DNA of 64,000 nucleotides. It comes from a phage. The stretch lies in the sequence record PZ534534.1; one strand, written 5' to 3'. The notes beneath the pieces are model-generated. The model was not told the DNA's origin and ran no database searches. It saw only the letters and a list, made by a program, of their open reading frames with translations. Position 1 is the stretch's first letter. Each line of letters starts with the position of its first letter. The translations under genes were made by a program, and so were the position numbers. Positions 22,468 through 42,926 of the stretch are shown piece after piece.

Positions 22468-23144
22468 TGGCAATAAATAGGAAAGATGCTGCTGTAAGAT
22501 CCTTCATAGAAAAAATAATGAGGGACTACCACACCAGTATCAGGGCCAGAGTTGTCAGTGTAGACTACAGTATCCCTTCTGCATCTGTGCAGCCAATAGC
22601 TGAAACCACGTTTGATGACGGAGATGTGGAGAGATACCCCCTTATCTATGACGTTCCAATTCAGGTGATGTCTGCAAACAGCGGAAAGGCAAGGTTAACA
22701 CTTCCTATTAAGGCCGGAGATGTTGTAGGATTGCAGTTTTCAGAGAGGAATGAAAACAATAACGACGATCAACAAACTCACGGCCTGTTTCCAGGGTGGG
22801 CAATCACCTCCGTTCATTCAGACTCAAACGCTTTACAGATCGATCCTGATAACGTAGAGTTATGGAATGATAGGGTTTATTTTAAACTGACACCTTCTGG
22901 CGATTTTGAGCTTCAGACACCGGGTGGAACATTACGGTGCGACAGCAGCGGGGAGTTTTCTTTCACTAACGGTGCTGCCAATTTGCGAGCTGCTGTGGAT
23001 GGAAATATCAGAATGAATGGTGCCACAATAGACCCATCTGGTAGAATTATAACTGCTGCTGGCGTGGATTTGGATTCATTCTATGCAGAATATAAAGGTC
23101 ATACCCACTCTTGCCCTGATGGCGAGACAAGTGGACCGCACTAA
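22467..23144 (+). CDS. baseplate central spike protein (P2 gpV / Mu gp45-like, putative)
   Basis: 225 aa; beta-rich spike-like sequence ending in a His/Cys-rich apex motif (YKGHTHSCPDGETSGPH). Confidence 0.5.
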   Translation: MAINRKDAAVRSFIEKIMRDYHTSIRARVVSVDYSIPSASVQPIAETTFDDGDVERYPLIYDVPIQVMSANSGKARLTLPIKAGDVVGLQFSERNENNNDDQQTHGLFPGWAITSVHSDSNALQIDPDNVELWNDRVYFKLTPSGDFELQTPGGTLRCDSSGEFSFTNGAANLRAAVDGNIRMNGATIDPSGRIITAAGVDLDSFYAEYKGHTHSCPDGETSGPH

Positions 23145-23156
23145 TAGAGGGCTTTC

Positions 23157-23873
23157 ATGGCTACGCTTTATAGTGATATATTGATGGACCCACAGACAGG
23201 CGATTTGGCGATAGACAAAGGTCTTGAGTTGATAGATTCAAACCAGGTAAGTCTGCGCCAGCGCTTGTGGATGAGATTTAATACGTGGAAGGGGAGCTGG
23301 TACTTTGACGAGCTGTTTGGCTTCCCTTATATGGACTTTCTCAGCAAGAAGGTCATGAAGACTGTTCTTGATAACAAGATTATGGAAGTGGCAAGACAAG
23401 AGCCGGATGTGCTAAACATCATAAACTTCCAATCCACCATGGATAGAAGATCGAGAACATACCAAGCGTTCTTTGAGGTTGTTACCAAAGAGAACGAGAT
23501 TGTAAGGCTGGCTTTTGTAGGTCTTGATCAGTTCACCTACCCACAGCCTGATTCTGGGACAACCTCCCTCTGTGATGATGAGGGTTGGATTAAGTGGGCT
23601 AATAAACTGTACTATCTGATCAACTTCAGATTGCCTAGAACCGGAGATGCCACATGGTGGAACCAGTATGCTGGTCCTGAGATGGAAAACCCGATCCCTG
23701 TAGGCTCTCTGTTGACTCAGGATAAAGATCTGCTGATGACTGAGGCAGAACAAACCATTAACCGCAATACCTGGACGCTTGCTCCAGATGAGCGCGAATA
23801 CTCTGGTGTTATTGCTACCTCCAATGATGAGGCTATTGCCAACCAGTCTGGTCGTGCTATTGATGTTAACTAA
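23157..23873 (+). CDS. hypothetical baseplate protein
   Basis: 238 aa in baseplate gene run. Confidence 0.35.
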   Translation: MATLYSDILMDPQTGDLAIDKGLELIDSNQVSLRQRLWMRFNTWKGSWYFDELFGFPYMDFLSKKVMKTVLDNKIMEVARQEPDVLNIINFQSTMDRRSRTYQAFFEVVTKENEIVRLAFVGLDQFTYPQPDSGTTSLCDDEGWIKWANKLYYLINFRLPRTGDATWWNQYAGPEMENPIPVGSLLTQDKDLLMTEAEQTINRNTWTLAPDEREYSGVIATSNDEAIANQSGRAIDVN

Positions 23874-23882
23874 GGAGAAATC

Positions 23883-24551
23883 ATGGCTGTAGCTTATCCT
23901 ACAATACCAATTCCAGATCTTGAAGATGCAGAAACAGTCCTGAGTGATGACTTCTTGGTTGTCAACCAGACTGATGGGACAAGAAAGGCTAAGATTGACG
24001 ATGTTGTCAACGATCTTAGCATCACTAAGATAGTCTATTTCACAGAGGGTGGTTATCTTAAGAGCAAGAAGGACTTTGCTTATGATCCAGAAACTAAGCG
24101 CTACTACACGTGGAACGGGGATTATCCTAAAATAATCCTCCCAGACTCCACTGTAGAGGGTGCTGGGGGTGTGTCTGCAAATGCCTGGTCTGTTTTTGGT
24201 GAGCTTGCTGCAACTTCTTCTGGCAGAATAGTTGATTACGGATCTATCGGTGGTCAGCTTGATATGGATCTTGAAGTTGCGGATACCTTTAAGGTTCGAC
24301 TAACTTCAAATACCACAATCTCTTTTGAAAATCAAACAGAAGGTCTTGAAGGGGTGGCGAGGACTATAACCGTATGCATTACTCAGACCTCTGGCGGCAA
24401 CAAAGTCTATTGGCCTGGTAATGTTAAATGGTCCTACGGAAGAGATCCTATCCTAACATTTACAGCTGGTGCAACAGATATTTTCAAGTTGGAAACCTAC
24501 GACAACGGGTTAACTTGGTACGGGGCACTGATTATCGCAGGAGCTATCTAA
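23883..24551 (+). CDS. receptor-binding protein with conserved N-terminal particle-anchor domain
   Basis: N-terminal 100 aa share a recognisable pattern with the N-terminus of the 27186 fibre (F.EGG.L....DFAY.......Y.W.G..P...P). Confidence 0.5.
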   Translation: MAVAYPTIPIPDLEDAETVLSDDFLVVNQTDGTRKAKIDDVVNDLSITKIVYFTEGGYLKSKKDFAYDPETKRYYTWNGDYPKIILPDSTVEGAGGVSANAWSVFGELAATSSGRIVDYGSIGGQLDMDLEVADTFKVRLTSNTTISFENQTEGLEGVARTITVCITQTSGGNKVYWPGNVKWSYGRDPILTFTAGATDIFKLETYDNGLTWYGALIIAGAI

Positions 24552-24552
24552 G

Positions 24553-27150
24553 ATGCGTATTCAACACAACATTGATAACGTATTTCAGATGATTGAGGGG
24601 CACAGGAAGTGCCTCGATAACAACACAGGTATTACCAACACACCTACACAAAATAAGCTAGTAAACCCTGATGGTCTTATAGCTGCAGGGTGGGCAGGTA
24701 ATAAGATAAATAACGATTGGGCAATGCATGAGTCCCAAGCTGTGTTGATTCTGGGATACATTGAAGCATACAGGGCATCGAAAAGCGATTTCTATCTGGA
24801 TAGGGCAAAAGATGCTTGGGAAGCTTACAATAGTCATCTTCTGGGTGCATATGCCGTAGAAAGTAAAATGCAAAGATTGTCCCACTACCCTCTATCCACA
24901 GATGGGGTTCCATCACACGGTGGGTTTAAAGATGTGGTGGTGTCTTTTACCAACGGTAGAGGAAAAATCCCAGCTGGATCTCCGACATGGGGGGAATACC
25001 TGGACAAGGCATTCCAAGCGTATAACGGTGTGTTAGGAAGAAACACTGTAGACTCTGATGTTTACGGTGGCACAGATGCTAACCCAGATTGGACAACATC
25101 CGGATTAAGTTGGTGGGTTGAGTGGTACATAGCATGGGATGGTAACCGCTATTGGGCTAACGGTAGCATAGCCGACAGTGGTCATACGTCTGTAGAGTTC
25201 GGCACAATCCAATTACAAGATAAGGGTGTTACAGGCAGCCACAAGGTGACCTATTGTGTAAGATTACCTCAGGAGCAGGGTGGATCGGTGATACCTGCAG
25301 GATCCCCTGTAATTGTAAATCCTATAAACGTGGTTGCAGATAATCAGGCCCCAGAGTTGGACGGGGAAGAAATGTGGTGTGACGCTTGTTATCAACTCTA
25401 CACCTTGACAGGTGAGGAAAAGTATTACACCGCGTTTGAACAGTCTTACAACAAACTGCTTAATTTCAGTGATATAAACGCCTACGACAAATTGTTTAGA
25501 AAGACCACGTTGATTAAGGCACCGTTTACAGATGGTACTTGTCTTGTTGCAGGAACAGTTCCTGTCATGAGCAGGGACAGTGACGGGTATATCAATTTTA
25601 GAATGAACGCACGCCAGCCTTGCGAAATAATCCAAAAAGGGACTACATACAAAATAGGCAGAGATGCTGAAATTGTTATGAATTTCGGAGGAGAGGGGGT
25701 TCTGTTCCAGCCACATTTCATCCTTAATGATGGCAACAATAACAAAAAACAGTACAGGATAGGGGTTCCTTTTGGAAGGGCAGAGGTAACAGAAATAGTT
25801 GCCAAGGTTACCGATTTCGTAGAGGTGGTTGGTAAAGACGGTAATCCGTATCTCTTACCTAAAGAGGAAAACATTGCCGTAAGCGGTGGTGCTAGTGTTA
25901 GTATGCAGTATGATACCGACATTTACAACCACTCTGACAACTTCACCCGTTGTAATATAGCAAGAGGTAAAGTAACTTTCAATTTTGGAAGAGAGATTTC
26001 TTTAAACTCAGTAACTTATCGATCAGATGATGAGATGGTAAGGGTCAAATTTCTTGACAAAGACAGGTGGTTATGGTATGCTGATCTATATGCCACCAAT
26101 GGACAATGGATAACAGAAACTCTTACTCTAGGAGATTTCAAACTAGATCCGACACAACCTCATCACACCGAAGAAGAGATTAAACCTTTCTTTGCTAATC
26201 CTAAGGGACTAACCTCTGTAGATTTCAGTCTAAGCGACAGGCAGATAGGTAATGGCTTGTTTGATCTGTATTGCGTCAACACGCTGCCGCAATTCTATAT
26301 TGCAGATAGGGATGCTTATCTAATCTGGTTTAGCGTGTGGATGGCAAGCAAGACAGAATCAACCGCTAAGGTTGGCGATTGCTATGTCAGAAACTACAAG
26401 CAAGGTGCATACAGGCACACACCGGGTGTGTTCCCTGCCGGAAAGGTGATAGATAAGGAAAACTATCTCTTAGAGGAAAAGCCAAATTGGCCCTACCCTG
26501 GCATGCAATACCCAGCAGTCTACTGCATGGGTGCAGAAAACATAGATCGCCATAGATTGTCAAATACAATAGGCTTTCTGTATGACGCTCAAGTCTGGTA
26601 TAATAATACATTTAGGACAGAGGGTCCAGTTGCCTCACGTTATGTATGGCAGAGAGGCAATGAAGGGTTGACTGGTTGGTGGGAGATGGTAGATAACTCT
26701 AAGCTCCAGTCAAGATCTTTTGTTGCTGCGTGCCGCACAATATATGAGCTCAAGAAACATAAAGAACCTGTTGATGAAAGACTGTTCCTGTTCTGCCAGA
26801 AATGGGCATGGTTCCTCAACAGATTCCAGTCATCTCATTCAGGAAATCTGCCTACAGACTTTAACACCTCTGGGGGATACTCTTATCAAGACAGAGGGGA
26901 CAGGATGTGGGTGGTAGGTGAATGGCTTGCAGGTTGCTGCTGGCTAGGTCTGTGCGGGTATTCAGAGACAATACCTCAAATAGATATTGTTGTAGAAGCC
27001 TGTGTGAAGCTACTGCAAAAGCACCACTTCATTAATGGGGATAATATTTTAAACGGCTGCTGGGCAGTTTCTGATCCGGTTGGCTATCACTCTGGCGAAA
27101 TCCTTCGCGGTCTGGGTCTTTATGCTCAATACCGTGGATTGTACCTTTAA
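24553..27150 (+). CDS. large tail-associated protein, putative polysaccharide depolymerase (tailspike-like)
   Basis: 865 aa immediately following the anchor-domain protein; Trp/Tyr-rich sequence suggestive of a carbohydrate-active fold; function inferred, not demonstrated. Confidence 0.4.
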   Translation: MRIQHNIDNVFQMIEGHRKCLDNNTGITNTPTQNKLVNPDGLIAAGWAGNKINNDWAMHESQAVLILGYIEAYRASKSDFYLDRAKDAWEAYNSHLLGAYAVESKMQRLSHYPLSTDGVPSHGGFKDVVVSFTNGRGKIPAGSPTWGEYLDKAFQAYNGVLGRNTVDSDVYGGTDANPDWTTSGLSWWVEWYIAWDGNRYWANGSIADSGHTSVEFGTIQLQDKGVTGSHKVTYCVRLPQEQGGSVIPAGSPVIVNPINVVADNQAPELDGEEMWCDACYQLYTLTGEEKYYTAFEQSYNKLLNFSDINAYDKLFRKTTLIKAPFTDGTCLVAGTVPVMSRDSDGYINFRMNARQPCEIIQKGTTYKIGRDAEIVMNFGGEGVLFQPHFILNDGNNNKKQYRIGVPFGRAEVTEIVAKVTDFVEVVGKDGNPYLLPKEENIAVSGGASVSMQYDTDIYNHSDNFTRCNIARGKVTFNFGREISLNSVTYRSDDEMVRVKFLDKDRWLWYADLYATNGQWITETLTLGDFKLDPTQPHHTEEEIKPFFANPKGLTSVDFSLSDRQIGNGLFDLYCVNTLPQFYIADRDAYLIWFSVWMASKTESTAKVGDCYVRNYKQGAYRHTPGVFPAGKVIDKENYLLEEKPNWPYPGMQYPAVYCMGAENIDRHRLSNTIGFLYDAQVWYNNTFRTEGPVASRYVWQRGNEGLTGWWEMVDNSKLQSRSFVAACRTIYELKKHKEPVDERLFLFCQKWAWFLNRFQSSHSGNLPTDFNTSGGYSYQDRGDRMWVVGEWLAGCCWLGLCGYSETIPQIDIVVEACVKLLQKHHFINGDNILNGCWAVSDPVGYHSGEILRGLGLYAQYRGLYL

Positions 27151-27154
27151 CATA

Positions 27155-27175
27155 GGGGGCTGTTTGCCCCCTTTC
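27155..27175 (+). terminator. rho-independent terminator
   Basis: Hairpin GGGGGCtgtttGCCCCC followed by TTT. Confidence 0.55.
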
Positions 27176-27185
27176 AGGAGAAAGA

Positions 27186-30100
27186 ATGGCTGATATTAAA
27201 GTTGTCAGAATTGAATCTCTTCCTGCCACTACCGCAGTGACAGAGGATGATTACCTGGTTGTTCAACAACCAGACCTGACTCGTCGTGTAAAAATTGGCG
27301 ATGTTGTCCATGTGGATGGGACTGTTTCTCATGTAATCTCCTTTAAGGAAGGTGGTAAGTTAAACGGCCCAATGGATTTTGCCTACTTCGAAGAGGAAGA
27401 CCTCTACCTGCGTTGGAAAGGCGAATTTCCACACACTGTTCCTGCACTGTCTTCACCGTACGCTGATGGTGGGATTACTGACGCTGCATGGATGGTATAT
27501 ACTGACCCGTCCCTAAGGGAGGAGCTGGAATCTACCATTGGCGCATCTATGATCATGACAGCCGAAGGGCAGTCTGTCCAGGATGTAATGGATGTTACTG
27601 TTCAGACAGCTAACGATGCTAAAGCACTTGCACAGCGTGTAGATTTTGGTACAGTGCACACTGTAGGCGATGTTATTCACCTTGATAACTTTGTTGGCCC
27701 TGCAGTTATTGAAGAGGGAAGAACTACCAACTACCCTTCTGTAGCAGCTGGTGAAAAATTTCTGAACGGTGTGGTATCTCGTCGTGATACTACAACTGTT
27801 GATGGTATTTTCCGTGGCGCTACCACCGGAGCTATGTACACCATTGCAGTAACCAACGGTGTAGCAACAACAAAAAGAATAGCACTTCGTGATGAATTTA
27901 AACGCCTAGAGACAAATAACCCAACAAGAACAGTTATCCGTGCTGGAGATGATTTAAATACGGCAGGGTACTTGCAGCTTGATGCAACAGGCCGTTGGGG
28001 TATGTGGAACCAACAAACAGCTTCGTGGCAACCTCTTGCTATAGAGCAAGGCGGCACAGGGGCTAGAGATGCCGCTGGAGTCCGTATCAATATCGGTGCT
28101 TTCTATAAGCAGCGTGCTGCGCTTGATGCAAATTTCAATATCAATAATTTGACTGGTAATCAGGATGGTATATACTACCAGCCGATGACTGCTAATGCAA
28201 CTGAGGCAAATGGTTACCCTGCAGGTTCTGGTGCTGGTCACTTGATTGTTTGGCAGAACAATGCTAACGGCGGTACAGGGTGTCGTCAGGAATACTATCC
28301 ATTCTCTAACGTAGATGTTTGGTATTTGAGAACCTATCAGGCCAACACAAATCAGTGGACTGCATGGCAGCCGATGGTCAGACCTCGTAACGATGATACC
28401 TTCAGATCTCATATTGGCCTTGGTAAAAACAACTCGCCAGCCTTCGGGCACCTTTACTTAGCTCAATACTCGGGAGATGTTAAATCGGCCTCAGGTATTC
28501 TCCATGGAGATAAATATAATACTGACGGTGTCCTTGAGCATGGATATAGGATCTATTCTGAGGTAAGAAACGACAATAAGGCTTGGTTGACAATCCACCT
28601 GCACAAAGGTGCAAAAGGATCTGAAACTCATAGATATTTAGGTTTACGCGAAGACGGCGTGTTAGACTGCCCTAAATACATGCAGGTTGGGGATCTTACT
28701 GGTCAGCTGACAAACTGGGGACTTGGAGAGTGGATTCGTAGTTCAGGAGCAGAAAGAGGCTTCTGGGGGTCCAAGAAAGCCGCCAAGATGGTCGTCTGGG
28801 ATGGTGGGATGGATGAGTCCGGTAACGGCACTCTGGAATGGGGTGTTTATAACAACCGGAAGGCCAAGTGGGAACCTTTATCTCACGCCGCAGGTGGCAC
28901 TGGGGCTACAACCCTGGCAGATGCTCAGAATCTGTTCAAAGTTCCTATAGCTGCGGGTGTCAAAGATTTCTTAACACTGCCAAGAACTGCAGGGATGGAA
29001 GATGGGAAATACTACCCAATCATCGTTAGAACAGATCCGTACTATGCTCCAGCAACTGGTACTGATATTACCATAGTTACCAGATCGTCATCCGGCAGTG
29101 ACCCTATGAACTGCGCTACTCTGCAGTGCCATTACAGAACTGGGGGCTGGACAGACAGAGGAGACTCTTTCTACGGGGTAGTAAATTTCTACCAGAATGA
29201 AAAAGCACTTCTTGGGATGGTTGCTCCAACAAGGGGTAAACAAGAGTATGTTGCTTTCTATGTAGAGGCTCGTGCTTTCCCTGTCAGCGTATACGCAAGT
29301 AGAAATGTTGTAGAAGTGTTTACCAGAGAGCAAGATTACCAGGTCGGAGCTGTAACAGACAATCAGGACGGTGTTAAGTTTGTTGCGCCTCTCCAGTCAG
29401 CAGATTTGAATCTTGCTGTTCTTGGAGATAACAATACCAACACCAGACCTATTGTTGACTTCAAAGGTACCTCTGGGTTCTACACTGGCGGCGGCACACA
29501 GTGGCACTATATAGGCACTGCTGAACGCTATGCGGTGATGAGCAAAATGAACATGCCTAAAGTCGAACTATGGGCTGACGGTATTGACTATTTGTGCTAT
29601 GGCAGCCCTAGAAAGGCGTTATTCTCTAATGCAGGATTCCAGTGTGCATCAGATGGAACAGAGGATCTAACTAACGGTACGTTTACCTCTAAATGCGGTA
29701 ATGGTGCTGGCCTCAAAGGTCAGGCAGAGTTCAGATCTACCCCAGAAGCTGGTCAAGTTATTGTTCGCGATGTTGTGGGCACAGCTCACAGATTCTACAA
29801 TTTCAACAAAGACGGTACTTTCTCGGCCCCTGGTGGTTTTGTATGTCATACTGGTGGAGACTGGAACAACCAGTTTGGGTCTAATAACCCGTCAAAAATA
29901 ATGGCGGGTAATGTTAACGGACCAGAAGGCTCGATGGTTGTTGGTGGACTGTCTGTGGCGTTCTCTGGAAACTATGCTTTCCAAATGGCTGGACGCCTTG
30001 ATCAGTTATACACCAGATCTATCGAGGGTGGTAACCATAGAGCGTGGAACAAGGTCATACAACACAGAGGGCAAGGTCTGGGGATTAATGACCTTAACGA

Positions 30101-30986
30101 CTACAAAGGGGATAGGGAAGGTTTTTATCATCAGGAGGCCAATGCTCAAGCCACACCTGATAGAAACTACCCATGCTCCCGGGCAGGTACGCTTATCGTG
30201 TACAGGAACTACGCCAATGTTCCAGAGAGTTGCGTACAGGAGTATATATCATATCTTGGGGAAAAATTCCTGCGTTATGGAACAACAATAGGTAGTGTTT
30301 TCACATGGGGACCTTGGCAGCAGCTTGGTGGTAAGGGAATTACTCTTAAAACCGCAGGTTCCAATCTTGACCCAGAGTTCATGATACATACAGGTGGTGG
30401 GACCGATGTTACCAACACTTCCAACATGCCTTCTAATACAGGCAGAATGTACTACTGGGGTAATGGCGCAGACAGGAAGAACGTGCTTGAGTTTCAGATA
30501 AACGACAACGCTACATCTGCCAGTTGGGTATGGCATTGTGGTGCTAAGACAGATGAGGCCAAGTCAAGGTACTTTGCTGTCAACGGCGTAGTAGAGTGCA
30601 CCGCTGTCAGCCAGAGCTCTGACCGTGACCTGAAGGATAACATAGAGGTTATTCCTAACGCGTTGGAAGCTATCCGTAAGATGAAAGGCTATACCTACAC
30701 TCTAAAAGAGAATGGTATGCCTCACGCGGGGGTAATTGCTCAAGAGGTTATGGAAGCATTGCCTGAAGCGGTTGGTTCTTTCGTGAAAAGGAAAGAGGTT
30801 CCTGGTCCTACTCAAGATGGTATTCCTCTGATGACCGAGGAAAGATTCTATAATGTTGACTATGCGGCTGTAACAGGATTGCTTGTTCAGGTTTGCAGAG
30901 AACAAGATGATAAAATAACCGCCCTTGAGGAGCAGGTTAAAAAATTGACAGAGGTTGTTACTGGGTTGCAAGAGAAACTGAAGTAA
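27186..30986 (+). CDS. long tail fibre with C-terminal intramolecular chaperone (peptidase S74) domain
   Basis: C-terminal block SDRDLKDNIEV...GYTYTLK...GVIAQEV is the hallmark of the self-cleaving chaperone domain of endosialidases and T5 L-shaped fibres; N-terminal anchor domain shared with the 23883 protein. Confidence 0.8.
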   Translation: MADIKVVRIESLPATTAVTEDDYLVVQQPDLTRRVKIGDVVHVDGTVSHVISFKEGGKLNGPMDFAYFEEEDLYLRWKGEFPHTVPALSSPYADGGITDAAWMVYTDPSLREELESTIGASMIMTAEGQSVQDVMDVTVQTANDAKALAQRVDFGTVHTVGDVIHLDNFVGPAVIEEGRTTNYPSVAAGEKFLNGVVSRRDTTTVDGIFRGATTGAMYTIAVTNGVATTKRIALRDEFKRLETNNPTRTVIRAGDDLNTAGYLQLDATGRWGMWNQQTASWQPLAIEQGGTGARDAAGVRINIGAFYKQRAALDANFNINNLTGNQDGIYYQPMTANATEANGYPAGSGAGHLIVWQNNANGGTGCRQEYYPFSNVDVWYLRTYQANTNQWTAWQPMVRPRNDDTFRSHIGLGKNNSPAFGHLYLAQYSGDVKSASGILHGDKYNTDGVLEHGYRIYSEVRNDNKAWLTIHLHKGAKGSETHRYLGLREDGVLDCPKYMQVGDLTGQLTNWGLGEWIRSSGAERGFWGSKKAAKMVVWDGGMDESGNGTLEWGVYNNRKAKWEPLSHAAGGTGATTLADAQNLFKVPIAAGVKDFLTLPRTAGMEDGKYYPIIVRTDPYYAPATGTDITIVTRSSSGSDPMNCATLQCHYRTGGWTDRGDSFYGVVNFYQNEKALLGMVAPTRGKQEYVAFYVEARAFPVSVYASRNVVEVFTREQDYQVGAVTDNQDGVKFVAPLQSADLNLAVLGDNNTNTRPIVDFKGTSGFYTGGGTQWHYIGTAERYAVMSKMNMPKVELWADGIDYLCYGSPRKALFSNAGFQCASDGTEDLTNGTFTSKCGNGAGLKGQAEFRSTPEAGQVIVRDVVGTAHRFYNFNKDGTFSAPGGFVCHTGGDWNNQFGSNNPSKIMAGNVNGPEGSMVVGGLSVAFSGNYAFQMAGRLDQLYTRSIEGGNHRAWNKVIQHRGQGLGINDLNDYKGDREGFYHQEANAQATPDRNYPCSRAGTLIVYRNYANVPESCVQEYISYLGEKFLRYGTTIGSVFTWGPWQQLGGKGITLKTAGSNLDPEFMIHTGGGTDVTNTSNMPSNTGRMYYWGNGADRKNVLEFQINDNATSASWVWHCGAKTDEAKSRYFAVNGVVECTAVSQSSDRDLKDNIEVIPNALEAIRKMKGYTYTLKENGMPHAGVIAQEVMEALPEAVGSFVKRKEVPGPTQDGIPLMTEERFYNVDYAAVTGLLVQVCREQDDKITALEEQVKKLTEVVTGLQEKLK

Positions 30987-30993
30987 CTGTTTT

Positions 30994-31019
30994 GCCCTCG
31001 CTTCGGCGGGGGCTTTTTG
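30994..31019 (+). terminator. rho-independent terminator (CGCTTCGGCG family)
   Basis: Hairpin CCCTCGCttcgGCGGGGG with UUCG-type loop followed by CTTTTTGTTTG. Confidence 0.65.
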
Positions 31020-31085: not shown

Positions 31086-31676
31086 ATGTTTTTATGGGAA
31101 AGGCCTAGATATCTTCCAGATATTAGATTGGAGCTGCTGGCAGATATTGTTACGTTTAAAAGTCCATTTACAGGTAAAACGCAAAAAGTAACCTATGCCA
31201 CACCTAACTGGAAAGGCACTTTGACGGTCTCCAATATCAGCGAGTCACAGTTGCTAGAGCTTAAGAGCTTTGTTGATCAGGTGTATAAAGATGGAAACAT
31301 CTTTCTTATTAAAACTTACGGTCACTCAGTAACAACTAATGAGCCAATCGCCCTTGGGCCTACTGGTAACGACGATTTTTTGAAGACGGTCGGATGGGAG
31401 CCAAACAGAGACATAGCTAGAGCTGGGGATAAAATATCTGTCAATGATGAATTGAAAGTGGTAACAGCTCCAGTGCGTAGTGATGGTGTTGGGTCTGCTG
31501 TTATAGGCATATCTCCAAGACTTAGAAAGCCTATTGCCGCAGGGGACACCATGAAGATAATAACTCAATCTCCGAAGGGTAGGTTTCATATCAGAGATAT
31601 TTATAAAATTAAGCAAAAAGTCGATGCTATGCAAAAAGGTGATAATATAGTTATCAACTTCTTTGAGGATTTCTAA
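31086..31676 (+). CDS. minor tail protein (tail-tip complex, first gene of J-type module)
   Basis: 196 aa, first of three small genes preceding the J-like gene. Confidence 0.45.
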   Translation: MFLWERPRYLPDIRLELLADIVTFKSPFTGKTQKVTYATPNWKGTLTVSNISESQLLELKSFVDQVYKDGNIFLIKTYGHSVTTNEPIALGPTGNDDFLKTVGWEPNRDIARAGDKISVNDELKVVTAPVRSDGVGSAVIGISPRLRKPIAAGDTMKIITQSPKGRFHIRDIYKIKQKVDAMQKGDNIVINFFEDF

Positions 31677-31677
31677 G

Positions 31678-32229
31678 ATGATCAGAGCGCCATTAGATAA
31701 TTTATTTCTTGAAAAGCTGGAGCTTGATGGTGTTGAGATCTTAATTGCTGCAAAGCTGGAGCTACCGACAGGAACTGTCAGGGTGTGCTCAGGCACTGGT
31801 GTTGTAGTAATTGAGGGGCAACATTTTATAGGGATAGGTGGATCAGCAACGTTAACTGCTGTGTCTGAGAAAGATGCCACCAACTTCGGATCTGTGGTAG
31901 CGACATTGAACGGGTTTGATCCTAAGTATGTGGGTGATCTGCTGAAGACGGAGTATTCTGGTTGTCGTGCCACGTTGTACATTACCGCTATGGAGAATGG
32001 TCTGCCTGTTACAACTAATGGCTTGTTTGACGGCCTTATAACAGATATGGCTATTCAGACAGGCGAGAATAGTGCTTTGTCCATATCCATCTCCTCCATC
32101 TTCAACAGCTGGTTAAGAGGTTTTCCTTATCGGTACACGGAGGAAAGCCACAGCTCAAGAAACGATAACGACAGATTTTTTAAATATGTGGATCAGGTGG
32201 CGAGCCGCCCGATCATTTGGGAGGTTTAA
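31678..32229 (+). CDS. minor tail protein (lambda L-like position)
   Basis: ATG at 31678 with GAGGAT RBS (ORF-track TTG start at 31663). Confidence 0.45.
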   Translation: MIRAPLDNLFLEKLELDGVEILIAAKLELPTGTVRVCSGTGVVVIEGQHFIGIGGSATLTAVSEKDATNFGSVVATLNGFDPKYVGDLLKTEYSGCRATLYITAMENGLPVTTNGLFDGLITDMAIQTGENSALSISISSIFNSWLRGFPYRYTEESHSSRNDNDRFFKYVDQVASRPIIWEV

Positions 32230-32654
32230 TGAGCACACATCCTCGTTTAGTGGATTGGCAAGAAAGATTGTGGAAAGTGTTTGACGAAGAGGCCACCATA
32301 CCTTTTGAATGGGGATTCCACGATTGTTGCACCTTTGCGGCTAAGTGTGTTGATGCCCAATACGGAACAGATTTTCTTTCTAACTTTGAAGGAACGTATA
32401 AAACAGAGTTGGAAAGCAAAAGATGGTGCATGCTTCGTTTCAAAACCACACACCTGCCTACTATTTTTGATCTCTTTATGACTCGGCTGGATACTCCTAA
32501 ACAGGCTCAGCGTGGAGATATTGTCATTTTCGAAGGTCTGAACGGGCTCACCGCTGGTGTGTTCTGGAACAACCAGATTTGGGCTAAAGGTGATAAAGGG
32601 GTCTTTATGTTCGACATGAAAGATTCTATCGTTGTTGATGTCTGGAGGTATTAA
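32229..32654 (+). CDS. minor tail protein, putative NlpC/P60-like (lambda K-like position)
   Basis: ATG at 32229 with GGGAGG RBS; conserved Cys/His (FHDCCTFAAKC) consistent with a papain-like peptidase domain. Confidence 0.45.
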   Translation: MSTHPRLVDWQERLWKVFDEEATIPFEWGFHDCCTFAAKCVDAQYGTDFLSNFEGTYKTELESKRWCMLRFKTTHLPTIFDLFMTRLDTPKQAQRGDIVIFEGLNGLTAGVFWNNQIWAKGDKGVFMFDMKDSIVVDVWRY

Positions 32655-35600
32655 TGCCAATTGCAATGATTGATAACATCGTTGCTTCTGCAAGATCTTC
32701 AAGTTATGACTGGAACGCATCCAAGGCAGCTCTGGCTGACAGCCTGAACACTGTTACCACCAGAACTCTGGATAAGATTTTCGAGGGAAACAAATCTTAC
32801 AGAAGTCAGCAAGATAGACAAAAGCTTCTCAGATCTTCTGCTGCACCTTGCTCTGTAGTGTATGGGAAGACACGTACATCTGGATTGCTTGCGTTTTTGG
32901 AGCAGGACAGGGACAGAACCCTTCATTGTGCTATTGTTCTTGCCAATCACCCTCTGGAAGGTATAGAAGATATACTTATCGACGGTAATCCTATTTCTTC
33001 GTATGGGGATTTGGTATCGTGGGAGCTACATAACGATAGAAAAACCTCTGATCCTTTCATGGGCACACACTGCCCATCGTGGTCACCGGACATGATAGGT
33101 AGAGGGATCAGTTGGCTACGGGTCAGCTTTAGGTTTGACCCTAACAAGTTTCCTTTTGGGTTGCCAAACGTCACACTCGTCAAGGTTGGTAAAAAATGCT
33201 ATGATCCTCGCACTAGTAAAGAGGTGTATACCAATAACGCTGCCTTGGTGATTCTGGACTATTTAAGAACGTACCTTAAATGTCCTGACGAAACCATCAA
33301 CTGGGAGTCCTTCAAGGAGGCTGCCAACATATGCGACGAGGCTGTAAGAAACGCAGACGGAACCAGCGAGCGTCGTTACACAATTAATGGCGAGTTCGAT
33401 ATGGATGAGGCCCCAGCAAGTATTATGGCAGAAATGCTGAAAGCTTGTGGCGCAGATCTCAGCTATGTAGCTGGTAAGTATGGTTTGCTGGTTGGTGCAT
33501 ACTATGGCCCGGCAACAATGACACTGAGTGAGGATTGTGTCTGTGGTGAGGTCAAGATCTACCCGGAAGCCTCATTTGACAAAAGATCCAACACAATAAC
33601 CGGCAGATTCACTAGTCCGACCAAAGGGTATTCTGAAACAGATTTTCCATCAGTGTTTGTCCCAGAGTGGATAGAGAAGGATGGAGAAAGAAAGATAATC
33701 GATATAGACTATCGCTTTGTTACCAGCCCTTATCAAGCTCAGCGTGTTTCTGCAATCTTCTTAAGACGCGCGAGAGCTGGCAGGATTATTGAAGTCACCT
33801 GCAATATGCGAGGTTTTAAATTTAAACCTGGTCGTTACGTTACAATGAACCTTCCAAGTATAGGTATAGTGGGCCAAGAAATGAGGGTTCTTGAATGGGA
33901 GTTTACCAAAAAGGGTGGTGTCAAGGTAAAACTTCGTCAAGATGCTAAAGAGTGGAATGATGCCACAGGGCAACTTCCGGATTCTGGCAATGTAGATATT
34001 CCGATATCTCCATCTGGTGTAGCTCAACCGCAAAACTTCAGATACTCCGTTCTCCAAGCTGGGGAAGTAACTCACGGTGTTTTGGCTTGGGACAACGTTG
34101 GGACTTACGCTCAAAATATTGTGCAGGTAAGAAAGAACGGAGAGATTGTTTGGACAGCACAGACAGTTGAGCAGTTTGTCAGAGTAGAAGGTTTGACCAA
34201 AGGGTCATACACAGCAACCGTGGTTGCAACATCTTATAAAGGTGGTGTATCTCCAGAAGCGTATTGTGAGTTTAACATTCAGGCACCTGAAGCTCCGGTT
34301 TCTGTAGAGGTTAAGCAAGGATACTTTGCTATCACCTTGATTCCGCATAGTAGGGATTTAGCAAGTGTTAGCACCCAGTATGACTTTTGGACATCCGGTA
34401 TGACAAGGTTGCCAGACACCAGTGATGCAACCGTTACTTCAAACGCCACCCGTATGGGTGTTGGTTCAACTTGGACATCTGAAGGTCTGCAGAACGATAA
34501 GGTTTATTATTGGTATATTCGAACCACAAACGCTTTTGGTAGTTCTCAGTTTGTAGAATGCGCTGCACGCTGCTACACCTCTATTGAGGATTTGATGCCT
34601 CAGATAGATGCTGAATTCAAAAAGACAGAAACTTATAAAGAGTTGATGAGCACTTTGGATTCCTCTATTGAAGAGGTTGAAAATCGTGTCACAGAACTTA
34701 ACAGGTACATGGATGGTAGGGTAGATGAAGCGTTCCAGCAACTTGGGGACAGAATAGGTGCGGTAGTTACAGAAACAACTCAGAAGTTTGAAGATGTCAA
34801 TGGTAACATTACAGCGCTGGATAGGAAACTTGTTGCTGCACAGAACAAATTCACCAACGATCTGAACACTGAAAGTGGCAGACTGGCATCTCTAATCGAG
34901 ACAACCAATAAAGCAACTACTGATCTTCTGAACAAAAAGACAGAGGCTTTAGATGAGAAATTGGTTGCCGCCAAAGGTGAGCTGGTAGAGCAGATAGGGG
35001 GAGTTGAGAGCGGGTATTTAGCCGGAGATAAAACTCTGGATGGTAAGATCAATACTCAGAGAACAGAACTTGACGCAAGCATCTTGAGCACTAACCAAGC
35101 CACTGTAGATCTTTTGAACAGGACATCTGAAACTCTGGATCAAAAGATTAGTCAGACAAACGCGACGGTATCTAAAAACTATACCACCCTTGACGGCAAG
35201 ATAACTACCGCAAAAACTGACCTCAACACCTTGATTGCCAATACCAACAAGGCCACCACTGACTTGTTGAATCAGAAAACATCTGCACTGTCAGAGCAAA
35301 TAACTTCTGCACGTGGGGAGATCTCTACCAACAAGCAAGCGATTGATGCTTTGGATGGAAAACTGACCTCCACAAAAACAGCGCTGGATGCTACAATTTC
35401 CGATACCAACAAAGCCACTGTGGACCTTATCAACGGCACAGCGTCAGCTATTCGTCAAGAACTTGCTGTCGCTAAGCAGGAGATCATCAATGATGTTGGG
35501 GATGTATCTGAGCTTAGGGCTGCAGTAGCTACAACATCTAAGGCTGTAACCGACTTAGAGGGTAAAGTAAATGCTCAATGGGGCACAAAAATACAGGTAG

Positions 35601-36493
35601 ACTCCGCAGGGAATAAATATGTTGCAGGTATCCAGTTGGGGATGGAAGGGTCTGGGGGCCAAGTTCAATCCTACTTCATGGTTAGTGCAAACAACTTTGC
35701 GGTATACAACCCCGGAAATGGAACAGCAACCCTTGCTTTCGCAATCAAGAACAACCAAGCGTTCTTGAAAGACGCTTTTATAGAGAATGGCACGATCTCT
35801 TCTGCCAAGATCGCACAAGAAATTTCGTCAAACAACTACGATGGCAACGGGTACCATAAATACGGTTGGTATATTAACAAGAACGGGCACGCCCAATTTA
35901 TGGATGTATGGGTGAAAGGCAACATCAACGCCAGTTCTGGTAACTTCACAGGGGCAGTTAACGCCACCAGTGGTACCTTCCGTGGGGATGTTTATGCCAA
36001 TAACGGTAGCTTTAGGGGCACCATAGATGCAACCGGAGGTACCTTCCGTGGGCGTGTAGAGGCTTCTGTTATTCGTGCTAACCAGTTCGAAGGTGCAATA
36101 GTTGCACACAAGACCTACGGTGACTGTCCTCCAGTATACAACTCTCAGCAGCAGGTTTGCCGTTGGAGATGGAGATACGTGGATAACGTTCAAGGACAAG
36201 GTAAGAACGTAACATTCTTCTTTAAGCTTAACGGAACTCTAGGAGGCTCCCAGTTGAATGTGTGGATAGCGGGGCACCAGTTGCTCGCTGGCAAGAAGTA
36301 TGGTAACGACAACGATGGTATGTGTGCAGTCGGGATAACAGGGCTGGGTGAACAGACCATAGACATTATTGTTGAAATTTACACACGCTGGTCCACCTCA
36401 GCTATAACAGGTGTTACAATATCCTGTCCTACTGTGATAGTAAGTCGTTCAAACTCTAGCTTCCAGGGACCTTGGAACGAGTCTCACGACTAA
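32654..36493 (+). CDS. host specificity / central tail fibre protein (lambda J-like)
   Basis: 1279 aa; blocks GYFAITLIPH, YYWYIRTTNAFGSSQFVE and WGTKIQVDSAGNKYVAGIQLGMEG...SANNFAVYNP match lambda J blocks recalled from memory; long heptad-like repeat region. Confidence 0.8.
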   Translation: MPIAMIDNIVASARSSSYDWNASKAALADSLNTVTTRTLDKIFEGNKSYRSQQDRQKLLRSSAAPCSVVYGKTRTSGLLAFLEQDRDRTLHCAIVLANHPLEGIEDILIDGNPISSYGDLVSWELHNDRKTSDPFMGTHCPSWSPDMIGRGISWLRVSFRFDPNKFPFGLPNVTLVKVGKKCYDPRTSKEVYTNNAALVILDYLRTYLKCPDETINWESFKEAANICDEAVRNADGTSERRYTINGEFDMDEAPASIMAEMLKACGADLSYVAGKYGLLVGAYYGPATMTLSEDCVCGEVKIYPEASFDKRSNTITGRFTSPTKGYSETDFPSVFVPEWIEKDGERKIIDIDYRFVTSPYQAQRVSAIFLRRARAGRIIEVTCNMRGFKFKPGRYVTMNLPSIGIVGQEMRVLEWEFTKKGGVKVKLRQDAKEWNDATGQLPDSGNVDIPISPSGVAQPQNFRYSVLQAGEVTHGVLAWDNVGTYAQNIVQVRKNGEIVWTAQTVEQFVRVEGLTKGSYTATVVATSYKGGVSPEAYCEFNIQAPEAPVSVEVKQGYFAITLIPHSRDLASVSTQYDFWTSGMTRLPDTSDATVTSNATRMGVGSTWTSEGLQNDKVYYWYIRTTNAFGSSQFVECAARCYTSIEDLMPQIDAEFKKTETYKELMSTLDSSIEEVENRVTELNRYMDGRVDEAFQQLGDRIGAVVTETTQKFEDVNGNITALDRKLVAAQNKFTNDLNTESGRLASLIETTNKATTDLLNKKTEALDEKLVAAKGELVEQIGGVESGYLAGDKTLDGKINTQRTELDASILSTNQATVDLLNRTSETLDQKISQTNATVSKNYTTLDGKITTAKTDLNTLIANTNKATTDLLNQKTSALSEQITSARGEISTNKQAIDALDGKLTSTKTALDATISDTNKATVDLINGTASAIRQELAVAKQEIINDVGDVSELRAAVATTSKAVTDLEGKVNAQWGTKIQVDSAGNKYVAGIQLGMEGSGGQVQSYFMVSANNFAVYNPGNGTATLAFAIKNNQAFLKDAFIENGTISSAKIAQEISSNNYDGNGYHKYGWYINKNGHAQFMDVWVKGNINASSGNFTGAVNATSGTFRGDVYANNGSFRGTIDATGGTFRGRVEASVIRANQFEGAIVAHKTYGDCPPVYNSQQQVCRWRWRYVDNVQGQGKNVTFFFKLNGTLGGSQLNVWIAGHQLLAGKKYGNDNDGMCAVGITGLGEQTIDIIVEIYTRWSTSAITGVTISCPTVIVSRSNSSFQGPWNESHD

Positions 36494-36598: not shown

Positions 36599-38089
36599 GT
36601 GGCTAAGTATGGATTGACAGAGGCTGGTTTCGTTATACCAACCCTAAATGACCTAATCGTTGAAACTAAGCAAAGCCTGATCCGTGCTTTTGGCGAAAAC
36701 TTCAACGTACAGAGTAACTCCGTTGCAGATAAGCTGACCACTATCTTCAACGAGCGAGAGTATCAACTTATTCTTATGGCAGCATCTGTATACGCATCAC
36801 AGACGCTGTATGGGGCAGAAGGTATTTACCTAGATGAGCTTCTTGGAAGACAAGGTATTTACCGAAGAGGCCGTTCTAAATCATCAGGTACCTGCCAGTT
36901 GACAATCAACACAACTGTGCCGTACAATATGATTTATGATTCCAAAACTTATACGCTGGACAGTGGCAACTTTGTTCTTAGCAACGATGTGCAAGTAGCA
37001 GGGAATCTTATTGCTCACAGAATAAATGCCCCAGACCTAAGGATTGGTAAATACAACTTTCAAATTACCAACCAGACAGATGGAAGTATCAAAACAAAAA
37101 GTCTGGTTTTAACAGATAAGTCTCTGGACTCTTCTGATCTGCCAAGCTTTTACGGAGAGATTAAGCAGTTCATTGTCGATAATACAACCCTGTTGAACGA
37201 CGATTTGATTCAGATAGATATGTTGACAGGAACGTTGTGGATAGGGTACAATTCGAATCTTGATCAAGTTGGACTTAATAGTAGAGTAGATTTCAGAGTA
37301 TCCCCGATTGTAGGGGAAAGAACTATCACACTGGATGTTATCGCTAACGAGGCGGGTGAGTTGTCAAGAGAGGCAGAAACCGTGACAACAATGTCACCTA
37401 CTCCCAGTGGATTTATCAAGCTTACCAACCGAGAAAGATTCAATGAGGGCAGGGATGTTGAGAAAGACTCAGAGTATCGCTTAAGAGCTTCCAGCACAAA
37501 ACAGTTAACATCTAAGGCTACCCGTCCTGCAATCCTTAGCGCTGTAAGCGAGGTGAAAGGTGTTGAGAAAGTGAGAGTGTTCTCCAATAACACCGATAAA
37601 ACTGATGCTAAAGGTATACCCCCTTACAAGTTCCAAGTGGTTGTGTTTGGTGGTGCAACGGAAGACATTTGCCAAGCACTTTACCAAACTATAGCCTGTA
37701 CGAACAGGACTTATGGTAATATTTTCTACGATGTCACTACATCTGACGGTCAAACTGAAAGAATTTATTACTCCAAGGCAAACACCTACCGCCTAGATGT
37801 AAGAATTACCTACTCCGGTGCTGCGCTTTCTACAACCGAAAAAGATGCCATTATAGAGGCTCTTTTGCAGGTTGTTAACGGACTGGATGTTGCAGATACG
37901 TTGTATAATATCCAATTGGTAGGTGCTGCATCTGCTGCTGTGTCAATAGGCAGATTTAATAGGCTGGTAATTCAAGTTAAATCCGTAGGAGCTTCTGATG
38001 AAGCTTACACTACAAACGATATTGTTGCGAACATGACCGAGGTGTTTGACCTCGACGAAAGTAATATAACTTTCCAACAAACTATTTAA
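36599..38089 (+). CDS. baseplate J-like protein (Mu gp47 / P2 gpJ family, putative)
   Basis: 496 aa; N-terminal block ...LYGAEGIYLDELLGRQGIYRRGRSKSSG... resembles the conserved baseplate-J signature; GTG start with GGAGGAG RBS. Confidence 0.6.
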   Translation: MAKYGLTEAGFVIPTLNDLIVETKQSLIRAFGENFNVQSNSVADKLTTIFNEREYQLILMAASVYASQTLYGAEGIYLDELLGRQGIYRRGRSKSSGTCQLTINTTVPYNMIYDSKTYTLDSGNFVLSNDVQVAGNLIAHRINAPDLRIGKYNFQITNQTDGSIKTKSLVLTDKSLDSSDLPSFYGEIKQFIVDNTTLLNDDLIQIDMLTGTLWIGYNSNLDQVGLNSRVDFRVSPIVGERTITLDVIANEAGELSREAETVTTMSPTPSGFIKLTNRERFNEGRDVEKDSEYRLRASSTKQLTSKATRPAILSAVSEVKGVEKVRVFSNNTDKTDAKGIPPYKFQVVVFGGATEDICQALYQTIACTNRTYGNIFYDVTTSDGQTERIYYSKANTYRLDVRITYSGAALSTTEKDAIIEALLQVVNGLDVADTLYNIQLVGAASAAVSIGRFNRLVIQVKSVGASDEAYTTNDIVANMTEVFDLDESNITFQQTI

Positions 38090-38100
38090 GGCGGCGAGAT

Positions 38101-38787
38101 ATGGCAGAGATTAAGTCGGATGTTAACCACATCCACACTCTGCCAGATTTTGTTCAGGGAGGTCTTGACTACCTGCCTGGAGATTTTCTGGCTGAGAAGG
38201 TTAATTTAGTCACATTCTTAACCGTATACCTTAAAAGGTTGGAGGATGTTGATAAGATGCTGGTAGGTTTGGCTGAAGGAAGATTGCTTAACAATGCCAG
38301 CGGAAGATACCTTGACGAAGTTGGTAATCAACTTGGTATTCTTAGGAATGGACTTTCAGATGCTGATTTTCGTGCCACACTAATTATTCAGCAGGCCGCA
38401 GCATCAAGGGGCGGGACTCGCGAAGATGTCATCTCCACCTTGCGACAATTGTTCGGAAGAGACAATTTCGATACGTGGAAAGGAGACAACTTCAGGTTTG
38501 ACATAAATATTAGAAAAACTTGCTTTGACATATTGCAGTCTATCGATCAGATCTTAGATATGCTACCATTACCTTGTCATTTGCGTCTTACAGAATCGCA
38601 AGGGCAAGCTTTTGGTTTTGAAGGGGACTCTACAGCTCTTGGCTTCGGATCAGTGTGGGAAGAAAACCAATTCGGAGTTGGTGGGCTGGCTACTTTGCTG
38701 TATGTTCCTGACGTAAGACCTGATTGGGACACCACAACCATTTATTGTGAAAGTATTACAGTAAACGCAACTAGACAGGAGGGTTAA
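38101..38787 (+). CDS. baseplate wedge protein (P2 gpI / Mu gp48-like, putative)
   Basis: 228 aa immediately after baseplate J-like gene, conserved gene order. Confidence 0.45.
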   Translation: MAEIKSDVNHIHTLPDFVQGGLDYLPGDFLAEKVNLVTFLTVYLKRLEDVDKMLVGLAEGRLLNNASGRYLDEVGNQLGILRNGLSDADFRATLIIQQAAASRGGTREDVISTLRQLFGRDNFDTWKGDNFRFDINIRKTCFDILQSIDQILDMLPLPCHLRLTESQGQAFGFEGDSTALGFGSVWEENQFGVGGLATLLYVPDVRPDWDTTTIYCESITVNATRQEG

Positions 38788-41912: not shown

Positions 41913-41926
41913 ATCGGAGGACTAGC

Positions 41927-42511
41927 ATGAAAATACTTCAAGAGTTTAAACTTTACCAACCGGGATCTGGCGAATACTACTCCAACAAGGAAACCAAGGA
42001 GCTGACCCCTCAAGAGGTCGAGGATTACACCGCATACACTGGGTATTTTTTACGTAATGATGATGGTGATTGGTATGTGCAGTCACGAACATTACGACAA
42101 GAAAATCCAGGGTGTATCTTCCTACTTGTTGACGAGAAGGGAATTCTTAAGACATCTACAGAAGAACCTGATGCCTTATGGCCTGCTCCAGGTCTTCGTG
42201 TGGTTATCGCCAAAAAAGAAGAGGTACCAGAAAACATTATGCTTCACCACGACGCTTTGCGTTTAGTTGGTGATGAATTTGTCACAGACAATGAATTCTT
42301 TGTTCAACAGGCAGAGGGTGTCATAGAGACAGAACTTGCTTGGGCTACTGCTAGAATTGGTGCCTATCAAGACATGATTGACCTTGAATATGATCTTACT
42401 GATGACCAGAAACGTAACATCAGAGATTTGAAAATGTACAGGGTAAAACTTCTTGAAATAGATACATCTAAAGCCCCTGACATTTTCTTCCCGGAGCGAC
42501 CTACCCTCTAA
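41927..42511 (+). CDS. tail fibre assembly protein (Tfa chaperone)
   Basis: C-terminal block DQKRNIRDLKMYRVKLLEIDTSKAPDIFFPERP matches the conserved Tfa C-terminal signature (W..YR..L..vD.s.AP.I.WP..P). Confidence 0.7.
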   Translation: MKILQEFKLYQPGSGEYYSNKETKELTPQEVEDYTAYTGYFLRNDDGDWYVQSRTLRQENPGCIFLLVDEKGILKTSTEEPDALWPAPGLRVVIAKKEEVPENIMLHHDALRLVGDEFVTDNEFFVQQAEGVIETELAWATARIGAYQDMIDLEYDLTDDQKRNIRDLKMYRVKLLEIDTSKAPDIFFPERPTL

Positions 42512-42522
42512 GAGGAGGTGTT

Positions 42523-42837: not shown

Positions 42838-42846
42838 ACAAAGGTC

Positions 42847-42896: not shown

Positions 42897-42926
42897 AGTC
42901 CTAAGGAATTTTCTCAGGAGAACGTG

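Follow-up and report, generated by a model that had tools for sequence, protein, structure and literature searches.

A common N-terminal module on two tail proteins of a Vequintavirus, and the gene pair to which the shorter protein belongs

The question raised by this locus is why a short tail protein and a long tail fibre of the same phage should begin alike, and what the short one is for. The locus lies in a stretch of 64,000 nucleotides (nt) of phage DNA (sequence record PZ534534.1), hereafter the window, and holds three consecutive genes on the plus strand: an open reading frame (ORF) for a protein of 222 amino acids (aa) at 23883..24551, with a match to phrog_7760 'tail fiber protein' (E=8e-120), the gene of an 865-aa tail protein at 24553..27150, and that of a 1266-aa long tail fibre at 27186..30986, with a match to phrog_6578 'tail fiber protein'. 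A first-pass annotation made from the letters of the window had taken the 222-aa and 1266-aa products for two receptor-binding proteins attached through a common anchor domain, on which enzymatic or fibre modules would be interchangeable, and the 865-aa product for a putative depolymerase. Among the matches listed, region 23000-31000 was 92-96.5% identical in nucleotides, over its full length of 8 kilobases (kb), to Escherichia phages, 241Ecol014PP, ECP2303, HeinrichReichert (Bas58) and FV3 among them; at least 80% of it was covered by 116 of the 124 matching phage records, and the 222-aa gene was 95-96% identical to Vequintavirus genomes. Because of this nucleotide identity, and since the gene order of the window is that of the annotated Vequintavirus genomes Bas58 and Bas54, we assign the window by sequence comparison to Vequintavirus, as part of an rV5/FV3-like myophage infecting E. 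coli. The orthologues are rV5 gp43, bas54_0025 and bas58_0025 for the 222-aa protein, rV5 gp42, phi92 gp141 and bas54_0026 for the 865-aa protein, and rV5 gp41 (1272 aa in rV5) and bas54_0027 for the long fibre. In rV5 virions all three proteins (gp41, gp42 and gp43) were found by mass spectrometry, and the N-terminus of gp43 was likened to that of the P22 tailspike (PMC3606486).

As judged by pairwise alignment, paralogy between the 222-aa protein and the 1266-aa fibre is confined to their first ~105 residues. When the whole proteins were compared by BLASTP with composition-based statistics, residues 8-105 of the former aligned with residues 7-105 of the latter, with 38 of 99 positions identical, 54 of 99 positive and one gap (E=3e-18), and the first 110 residues alone gave E=5e-22. 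Past residue ~105 no similarity between the two was found, every further BLASTP alignment having E>4, so that their remainders are unrelated at the sequence level. The motifs that the first-pass annotation had listed are all present in both proteins (YFTEGGYL and SFKEGGKL, DFAY in each, YYTWNGDYP and YLRWKGEFP, for the 222-aa protein and the fibre respectively), and its description of a common N-terminal pattern followed by a different remainder was borne out by the significant alignment. Both copies also contain the Pfam domain Tail_spike_N (PF18668, TSP1/Gp66 N-terminal domain) above its gathering score of 25, with 41.0 bits over residues 51-105 of the 222-aa protein and 39.2 bits over residues 46-103 of the fibre, whose copy of the module (residues 1-105) occupies 27186..27500 on the plus strand. 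A phmmer search that took both N-termini as queries and covered the 423 stop-to-stop ORFs in the window returned no third copy, and tblastn placed the module at two positions per genome in the Vequintavirus records listed. An origin of the shared N-termini by chance or from low complexity was rejected on the E-value of 3e-18 obtained with composition-based statistics.

The distribution of homologues indicates that the module is itself made of two parts, a lineage-specific N-terminal segment of ~45 aa and the generic, widespread Tail_spike_N domain; the anchor first described as one common domain is thus a shared homologous region, as claimed, and a composite rather than a single domain, its residues ~46-105 being found internally in other proteins. 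In the 222-aa gene the two parts correspond to 23883..24017 (residues 1-45) and 24018..24197 (residues 46-105), both on the plus strand. Residues 1-45, with the consensus MAD..PTV.ISDLP.AT.V...D.LVVDQ.D.TRK, align with the N-termini of the 1266-aa fibre, of gp221 and gp223 of the Seunavirus GAP31, of gp140 and gp143 of phage phi92 and of metagenomic proteins. A profile of both N-termini, searched against 1.84e9 representative proteins, gave 790 matches at E<=1e-3. Among ~20 of the best, profile positions 1-114 aligned to residues 1-113 of targets of 214-1599 aa; most of the other 150 matches listed covered only positions ~53-113, placed internally (68-128, 95-155, 150-211, 239-290 and so on), and a few covered positions 4-49 only, at target residues 2-46. 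The ~45-aa segment was always at the extreme N-terminus of its carriers, and positions ~53-113 alone stood behind other anchors in hundreds of other tailspikes. In the endosialidase K1F gp17, for instance, Tail_spike_N lies at residues ~138-224, after ~137 N-terminal residues that we take to be a T7-type anchor. Sequence matches of the Tail_spike_N half in the Protein Data Bank (PDB) were the tailspikes 9occ_G and 8x8m and the 'head' region of CBA120 TSP3, TSP4 and TSP1 (also 4oj5, 5w6f and 5w6h). Conversely, phi92 gp140, a 157-aa homologue of the 222-aa protein, lacks Tail_spike_N, and gp140 and the endosialidase gp143 share with the window proteins only their first ~40 residues. Because of the profile positions, K1F gp17 and the pattern of phi92 gp140 and gp143, the first ~45 residues are the lineage-specific element of the extreme N-terminus, backed by Tail_spike_N as a generic neck or head module, and we propose that residues 1-45 are the actual attachment element.

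The neck domain also bears on an existing annotation of the short protein. The 222-aa orthologue of Bas58 (bas58_0025, L001 14884-15552) carries the BASEL label 'sialidase domain protein'; the 222-aa protein has no catalytic domain and shares with endosialidases such as K1F gp17 only the Tail_spike_N neck, and the label is probably an over-transfer.

It could be argued that the two proteins have nothing more in common than a generic neck or trimerisation module, with no site-specific anchoring. The internal occurrence of profile positions 53-113 in unrelated tailspikes, downstream of other anchors, would agree with this, as would the observation that in CBA120 it is domain D1 and not D2 that contacts the partner (PMC8825819). 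We consider this explanation very unlikely, however, since the similarity extends over residues 8-45, outside the Pfam domain, the ~45-aa segment always begins at residue 1 and is the sole part common to phi92 gp140 and gp143, and unrelated lineages repeat the pattern with other N-termini, as described below for the genomic contexts L002 and L003.

Beyond the module its carriers diverge, which supports, as far as sequence comparison goes, the idea of exchangeable distal modules on a common N-terminal domain; of the first-pass proposal of interchangeable modules, the distal exchange stands in relatives and the single-domain anchor does not. The carriers of the module, 214-1599 aa long, begin with it at residue 1 and continue in unrelated ways (beta-helix spikes, fibres with an S74 chaperone, LamG-like or HxH tips, short adaptors). 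Three carriers of 220-224 aa are adaptors of the 222-aa type, and proteins of 518, 690, 704, 757 and 871 aa match the module to residue ~105 only and are unrelated beyond it, those of 690 and 704 aa having, by eye, the appearance of beta-helix spikes. Alleles of the long fibre of 617, 827, 988, 1481 and 1599 aa share with the 1266-aa fibre an N-terminal region of variable length, which is ~330 aa for the 988-aa allele and exceeds 1000 aa for that of 1481 aa. Among the long-fibre alleles (1266 aa and P0017-P0022) the distal difference consists of whole-block insertions or deletions of internal repeat units and of the type of tip, which is either an S74 chaperone or, to judge by eye, a LamG-like or an HxH gp37-like end. 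The tip of the 1266-aa fibre itself is of the first type, with a Peptidase_S74 intramolecular chaperone domain (PF13884, 60.8 bits, gathering score 22) at residues 1145-1196 (30618..30773, plus strand), and folding of the long fibre is probably assisted by it. In GAP31 the same gene order is found (sheath initiator, a 223-aa protein with 44% identity to the 222-aa protein, a 929-aa protein with 34% identity to the 865-aa protein, and a 712-aa protein), and the first 103 residues of the 712-aa protein are the module, the remainder being unrelated to the 1266-aa fibre and, by eye, like a beta-helix tailspike. The slot of phi92 gp143 was reported as empty or replaced in ESCO8, ESCO9 and ESCO32 (PMC10269720); with L010 included, phi92-like phages have it empty, truncated or taken by another spike.

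What the short protein might carry is suggested by the gene that follows it. The 222-aa gene ends with the TAA at 24549-24551 and the 865-aa gene opens with the ATG at 24553, so that the two genes abut as first described, at a spacing of one nucleotide instead of the two given earlier. They lie in different frames, and an AGGAG is found 9 nt upstream of the 865-aa ATG, within the 222-aa gene. Comparison among phages supports the view that the two genes form a conserved and widespread cassette, and the association noted in the first pass holds as a conserved pair across all genomes examined. The gene just upstream of an 865-type homologue ends in a domain homologous to the C-terminal part of the 222-aa protein (the C-domain) in L002, L003, L004, GAP31, phi92, L009, L010 and L011. 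In the distant contexts L002, L003 and L004 this domain of ~100 aa corresponds to residues ~120-220 of the 222-aa protein and the N-terminal parts differ: the upstream gene encodes a 153-aa protein in L002 (C-domain E=3e-20), a 244-aa protein in L003 (E=1.5e-20), and, in L004, which is a Burkholderia vietnamiensis genome region beside an integrase gene of the phage type, a SPRY-domain protein of 473 aa (E=8e-12). In the window, GAP31, phi92, L002, L003 and L010 the paired genes abut or share one base, and in L004 12 nt lie between them.

The same association was seen when 50,697 phage records were searched by tblastn (E<=1e-5). There were 517 records with a match to the C-domain and 525 with one to the 865-aa protein, and the two sets broke down almost identically by taxon, taken as the first word of the organism name in the record (C-domain and 865-aa protein, respectively: Escherichia, 240 and 243; Salmonella, 99 and 101; Vibrio, 58 and 62; Erwinia, 33 and 33; Campylobacter, 23 and 23; Cronobacter, 12 and 12; Aeromonas, 7 and 7; Klebsiella, 6 and 6). 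In all nine phages listed in both tables (phAPEC8, ZCKP1, JohannJBalmer, UAB_1, KE22, Mt1B1_P17, Vibrio K483, SE131 and FFH2, of which Mt1B1_P17, SE131 and FFH2 stand under a different accession in each table) the two matches were adjacent and on the same strand, the C-domain upstream. The carriers of the pair range from phages of roughly 40 kb to jumbo phages of 350 kb. A single gene, cut into the 222-aa and 865-aa genes by a sequencing error or read through by a frameshift, is an explanation that has the one-base gap in its favour and nothing else. It was rejected, since every lineage examined has two separate genes, fused homologues were not found, the frames differ and the second gene has its own AGGAG; together with the chance similarity dismissed above on its E-value, we regard it as extremely improbable.

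In five lineages the N-terminus of the adaptor is common to another fibre gene of the same genome: the 222-aa and 1266-aa proteins of the window (38% identity over 99 aa), GAP31 gp221 and gp223 (47% over 103 aa), phi92 gp140 and gp143 (39% over 38 aa, E=8e-6, with 0 of 200 shuffles reaching the score), the 153-aa and 1493-aa proteins of L002 (49% over 53 aa) and the 244-aa and 502-aa proteins of L003 (31% over 153 aa). The shared N-terminal sequences of L002 and L003 are unrelated to those of the window. Concerted evolution of the two modules within a genome was considered and is unsupported, the identity being 38% within the window, 46% within GAP31, and 51% and 35% between positional orthologues of the window and GAP31.

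The remaining parts of the pair can be described from predicted folds. Residues 113-222 of the 222-aa protein (24219..24548, plus strand) are a putative beta-sandwich like the XD1 domain of T4 gp9 and gp10, with no significant PDB match in a profile sequence search; no further domain such as the XD2 or XD3 jelly-roll is present. The 865-aa protein models as an (alpha/alpha)6 toroid of the glycoside-hydrolase type (GH8/GH48/GH88/GH105/GH76), with inserted beta-sandwich domains, and is best described as a putative (alpha/alpha)6 glycoside-hydrolase-like tail protein, in keeping with the depolymerase label that it had been given. Its homologues are 862-1157 aa long with 26-56% identity, and no N-module or recognisable anchor was found on any of them. 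A beta-sandwich region of ~150-185 aa occurs in the 865-type proteins (residues ~440-579 in the window, 25870-26289; phrog_23426), and the same region also makes up the C-terminal part of the 502-aa fibre that L003 encodes separately (5749-7257; 47% identity to P0008), which could represent a carbohydrate-binding module that moves between fibres and enzymes.

The explanation that best accounts for these observations as a whole, and whose truth we hold to be evenly poised, is that the shared N-module sockets both proteins, that the short one is a stub carrying an enzyme that has no anchor of its own, and that the two genes are a portable pair. Judging from position, conservation and recurrence, the first ~45 residues, with Tail_spike_N behind them, are likely to seat both proteins at the baseplate periphery, in sockets that are equivalent or paralogous. 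The module would plug the 222-aa protein and the 1266-aa fibre, probably as trimers, into this periphery, for which the wedge proteins encoded at 36599..38787 (plus strand) are candidate docking platforms; these are proteins of 496 aa, with a match to Pfam Baseplate_J and 31% identity to phi92 gp145, and of 228 aa, with 29% identity to phi92 gp146. Fibres I and III of phi92 are attached to the C-terminal domain of gp145 (PMC13450770). The distal part of the long fibre would then serve receptor recognition and vary between alleles. On the strength of the near-obligate gene pairing, the XD1-like end of the stub may well hold the glycosidase-like 865-aa protein, a proposal for which we see the balance as level, and the stub would add an essential structural function. 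As a portable cassette, the pair would keep the C-domain and the enzyme in unrelated phages and exchange the N-terminus of the adaptor for one that matches the resident fibre.

Several observations weigh against this explanation. Residues 1-45 match no Pfam family and no PDB structure by sequence, a search with a profile of the first 45 aa included, and the AlphaFold2 (AF2) model of residues 1-112 of the 222-aa protein had a predicted local distance difference test (pLDDT) score below 50; the homologue search gave only 4-6 matches per query, which made the alignments for structure prediction shallow. The 865-aa protein matched no Pfam family at E<=0.01, no PDB sequence at E<=1 and no curated glycoside hydrolase family, and the (alpha/alpha)6 fold is also found in epimerases and cyclases; among seven homologues invariant Asp/Glu columns are present. 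Small phage fibre proteins, moreover, commonly end in a knob with the fold of the C-domain (226 BFVD matches), and because of this the C-domain could bind a receptor instead of the enzyme. In that case the 222-aa protein would itself be a receptor-binding protein, a short fibre with a knob for a host glycan, the 865-aa enzyme would be attached independently, and the adjacency of the genes would reflect co-expression of a binder and a cutter. The knob is indeed frequent in small fibres, including collagen-like and 'tropism determinant' proteins, and the PHROG families with the C-domain are annotated as tail fibre. This alternative seems quite unlikely to us, given that no 865-aa homologue has a recognisable anchor, that the genes abut or overlap by one base in most contexts (12 nt apart in L004), that a near 1:1 co-occurrence is stronger than expected for independent parts, and that essentiality on K-12 would be unusual for an accessory glycan binder.

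The strongest objection to a plain carrier comes from transposon mapping by HIDEN-SEQ in Bas54 (bioRxiv 10.1101/2025.11.20.689424, Extended Data Table 8). In that study insertions were found at 7 of the 47 TA sites of bas54_0025, the 222-aa orthologue, which was called Essential, at 94 of 189 in the enzyme orthologue bas54_0026 and at 154 of 238 in the long-fibre gene bas54_0027, both called Intermediate. Most sites had insertions in bas54_0028-0031, a lambda-like module called Non-essential or Intermediate, and few had them in bas54_0032-0040, the wedge and further fibre genes, called Essential. Insertions in bas54_0027, tolerated on plates, were kept at 7 of its 238 TA sites in the table for liquid competition on K-12, too sparse for a reading of its N-terminal region (bioRxiv 10.1101/2025.11.20.689424). 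Polarity does not explain the result for bas54_0025, because insertions in 0026-0031 are tolerated. Since bas54_0025 is called essential and the enzyme and long fibre are not, the main role of the 222-aa protein cannot be to carry that enzyme; it is more than a passive adaptor and does something structural that is independent of its presumed cargo, given that insertions in the enzyme gene are tolerated. Of the two receptor-binding proteins proposed in the first-pass annotation, the short one is therefore probably an adaptor or baseplate component and not a receptor-binding protein.

These data have led us to consider that the 222-aa protein is first of all an integral part of the baseplate, essential and of the gp9/gp10 type, on which other fibres (the long fibre, for instance, or another essential fibre) would be socketed, with carriage of the enzyme secondary or absent. 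Under such an arrangement the shared N-modules might interact with each other or sit at neighbouring sites, in line with the statement that 'fibre II attaches to the base of fibre I' in phi92 (PMC13450770). Besides the essentiality pattern and the junction of fibre II with the base of fibre I, the XD1-like fold, as in T4 gp9 and gp10, and the position of the 222-aa gene directly behind that of the sheath initiator speak for it. We nevertheless think it unlikely, as it leaves unexplained why the C-domain and 865-type genes co-occur and abut in ~520 phage genomes with very different baseplates, and the cassette is also present in phages of roughly 40 kb and in a Burkholderia prophage region.

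Returning to the adaptor and its portable pair, the cassette might settle on very different tails by copying the anchor of the resident fibre, rV5 gp43 with gp42 and phi92 gp140 with gp141 might make up the density of phi92 'fibre II' or the arm of its fibre I, and the adaptor might have become an essential baseplate socket; we put this forward tentatively, as a possible though not a probable extension. In the cryo-electron microscopy (cryo-EM) study of phi92, fibre II could not be assigned to a protein, and gp141 was not considered (PMC13450770).

Comparable solutions exist in other phages. In K1E, K1-5 and SP6 a small adaptor of the gp37 type joins an enzymatic spike to the tail, as is proposed here for the 222-aa protein, with enzymes swapped between phages; no sequence relationship to these adaptors was found, and the adaptor described here differs in having an anchor common to the co-resident long fibre and an orthologue that is essential in Bas54. 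Klebsiella podoviruses have 'anchor-branch' systems of two receptor-binding proteins, in which a small adaptor links an enzymatic spike to the tail. The authors of the phi92 study compared its fibre I with the fibres of K1E and K1-5 (PMC13450770). In the branched tailspikes of Kuttervirus CBA120 (TSP1-4) and of G7C (gp66 and gp63.1), several receptor-binding or enzymatic proteins are assembled on one baseplate through N-terminal domains, as is proposed here; these include XD domains like those of T4 gp9 and gp10 and Tail_spike_N (head D2), and the distal modules are exchanged between phages (PMC8825819). Unlike in those complexes, only a putative XD1-like domain and no XD2 or XD3 was detected here, the presumed cargo has an (alpha/alpha)6 fold and neither a beta-helix nor a head domain, and the adaptor, at 222 aa, is a protein of its own, whose first 45 aa have no counterpart by sequence in the CBA120 or G7C structures. 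By analogy, the complex suggested here may be likened to the CBA120 and G7C branches and to the K1-5 and K1E adaptors, but it does not display their defining features. The direct homologues are phi92 gp140-gp141-gp143 and rV5 gp43-gp42-gp41, in the same gene order; phi92 gp141 is 35% identical to the 865-aa protein and the gp140 C-domain 42% identical to that of the 222-aa protein, and phi92 differs in that gp140 lacks Tail_spike_N and an endosialidase takes the place of the long fibre. Compared with T4 gp9 and gp10, the 222-aa protein is much shorter, has a different N-terminal part and shows no detectable sequence similarity.

That phage receptor-binding proteins keep a conserved N-terminal anchor and swap what lies distal to it is a well-known principle (PMC12143355), and a shared anchor on two tail proteins, both of whose domains are already catalogued, is an ordinary new example of modular tail fibres. 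What goes beyond this principle is the widespread adaptor-enzyme cassette and the two-part anchor. We found no description of the N-terminal paralogy, the adaptor-enzyme pairing or the two-part anchor in the literature on rV5- and phi92-like phages, a comparison from which the phi92 genome paper of Schwarzer et al. 2012 is excepted. The assignment of genes to fibres in these phages was called unresolved in BASEL 2021, RBPseg 2025 (PMC12143355) and the phi92 cryo-EM study of 2026 (PMC13450770). Our results narrow the problem, as exactly two proteins have the one N-terminal anchor and the short one always travels with a glycosidase-like protein, which offers targets for fitting into cryo-EM density. 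The boundary at residue ~105 (or ~45) is also a natural junction for engineering fibres or enzymes onto therapeutic phages of broad host range.

The surroundings of the three genes are those of a tail region. Directly upstream of the 222-aa gene, a 238-aa sheath-initiator or baseplate protein is encoded at 23157..23873 (plus strand), with 70% identity to GAP31_220 and 25% to phi92 gp139, which is the sheath initiator in the cryo-EM model (PMC13450770). Between the long-fibre gene and the wedge genes, at 31086-36493, there is a tail-tip module of the siphovirus type despite the myovirus nature of the phage, with a 196-aa Dit-like protein (phrog_1302), proteins of 188 aa and 145 aa (DUF6950) and a 1279-aa protein like lambda gpJ (Phage_Tail_Tip, Ig_J); GAP31 and phi92 have no such module at the equivalent position, and its orthologues in Bas54 are bas54_0028-0031, the genes called Non-essential or Intermediate. 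Farther on, at 40872-43970, the gene of a 194-aa tail-fibre assembly chaperone (Caudo_TAP) is flanked by paralogous short tail-fibre genes (346 and 348 aa). The 581-aa protein at 44258-46003 is a mosaic, similar to two phi92 proteins: to the colanidase gp150 at its N-terminus, over residues 6-112 of the window protein (44% identity), and to gp151 at its C-terminus, over residues 486-581 (48% identity). Its counterpart by synteny with Bas58, bas54_0040, had insertions at 1 of 123 TA sites and was called essential, unlike most other fibre genes (bioRxiv 10.1101/2025.11.20.689424). At ~52000-58000 the GC skew and AT skew change sign and the large ORFs move to the minus strand, which indicates that the direction of transcription changes after the structural module. 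Finally, this Vequintavirus region of an E. coli phage is matched at 90-100% identity by ~18-23 GenBank records that bear the name 'Campylobacter phage' and give C. jejuni as host, which suggests that in that dataset hosts were mislabelled or coliphages were present as contaminants.

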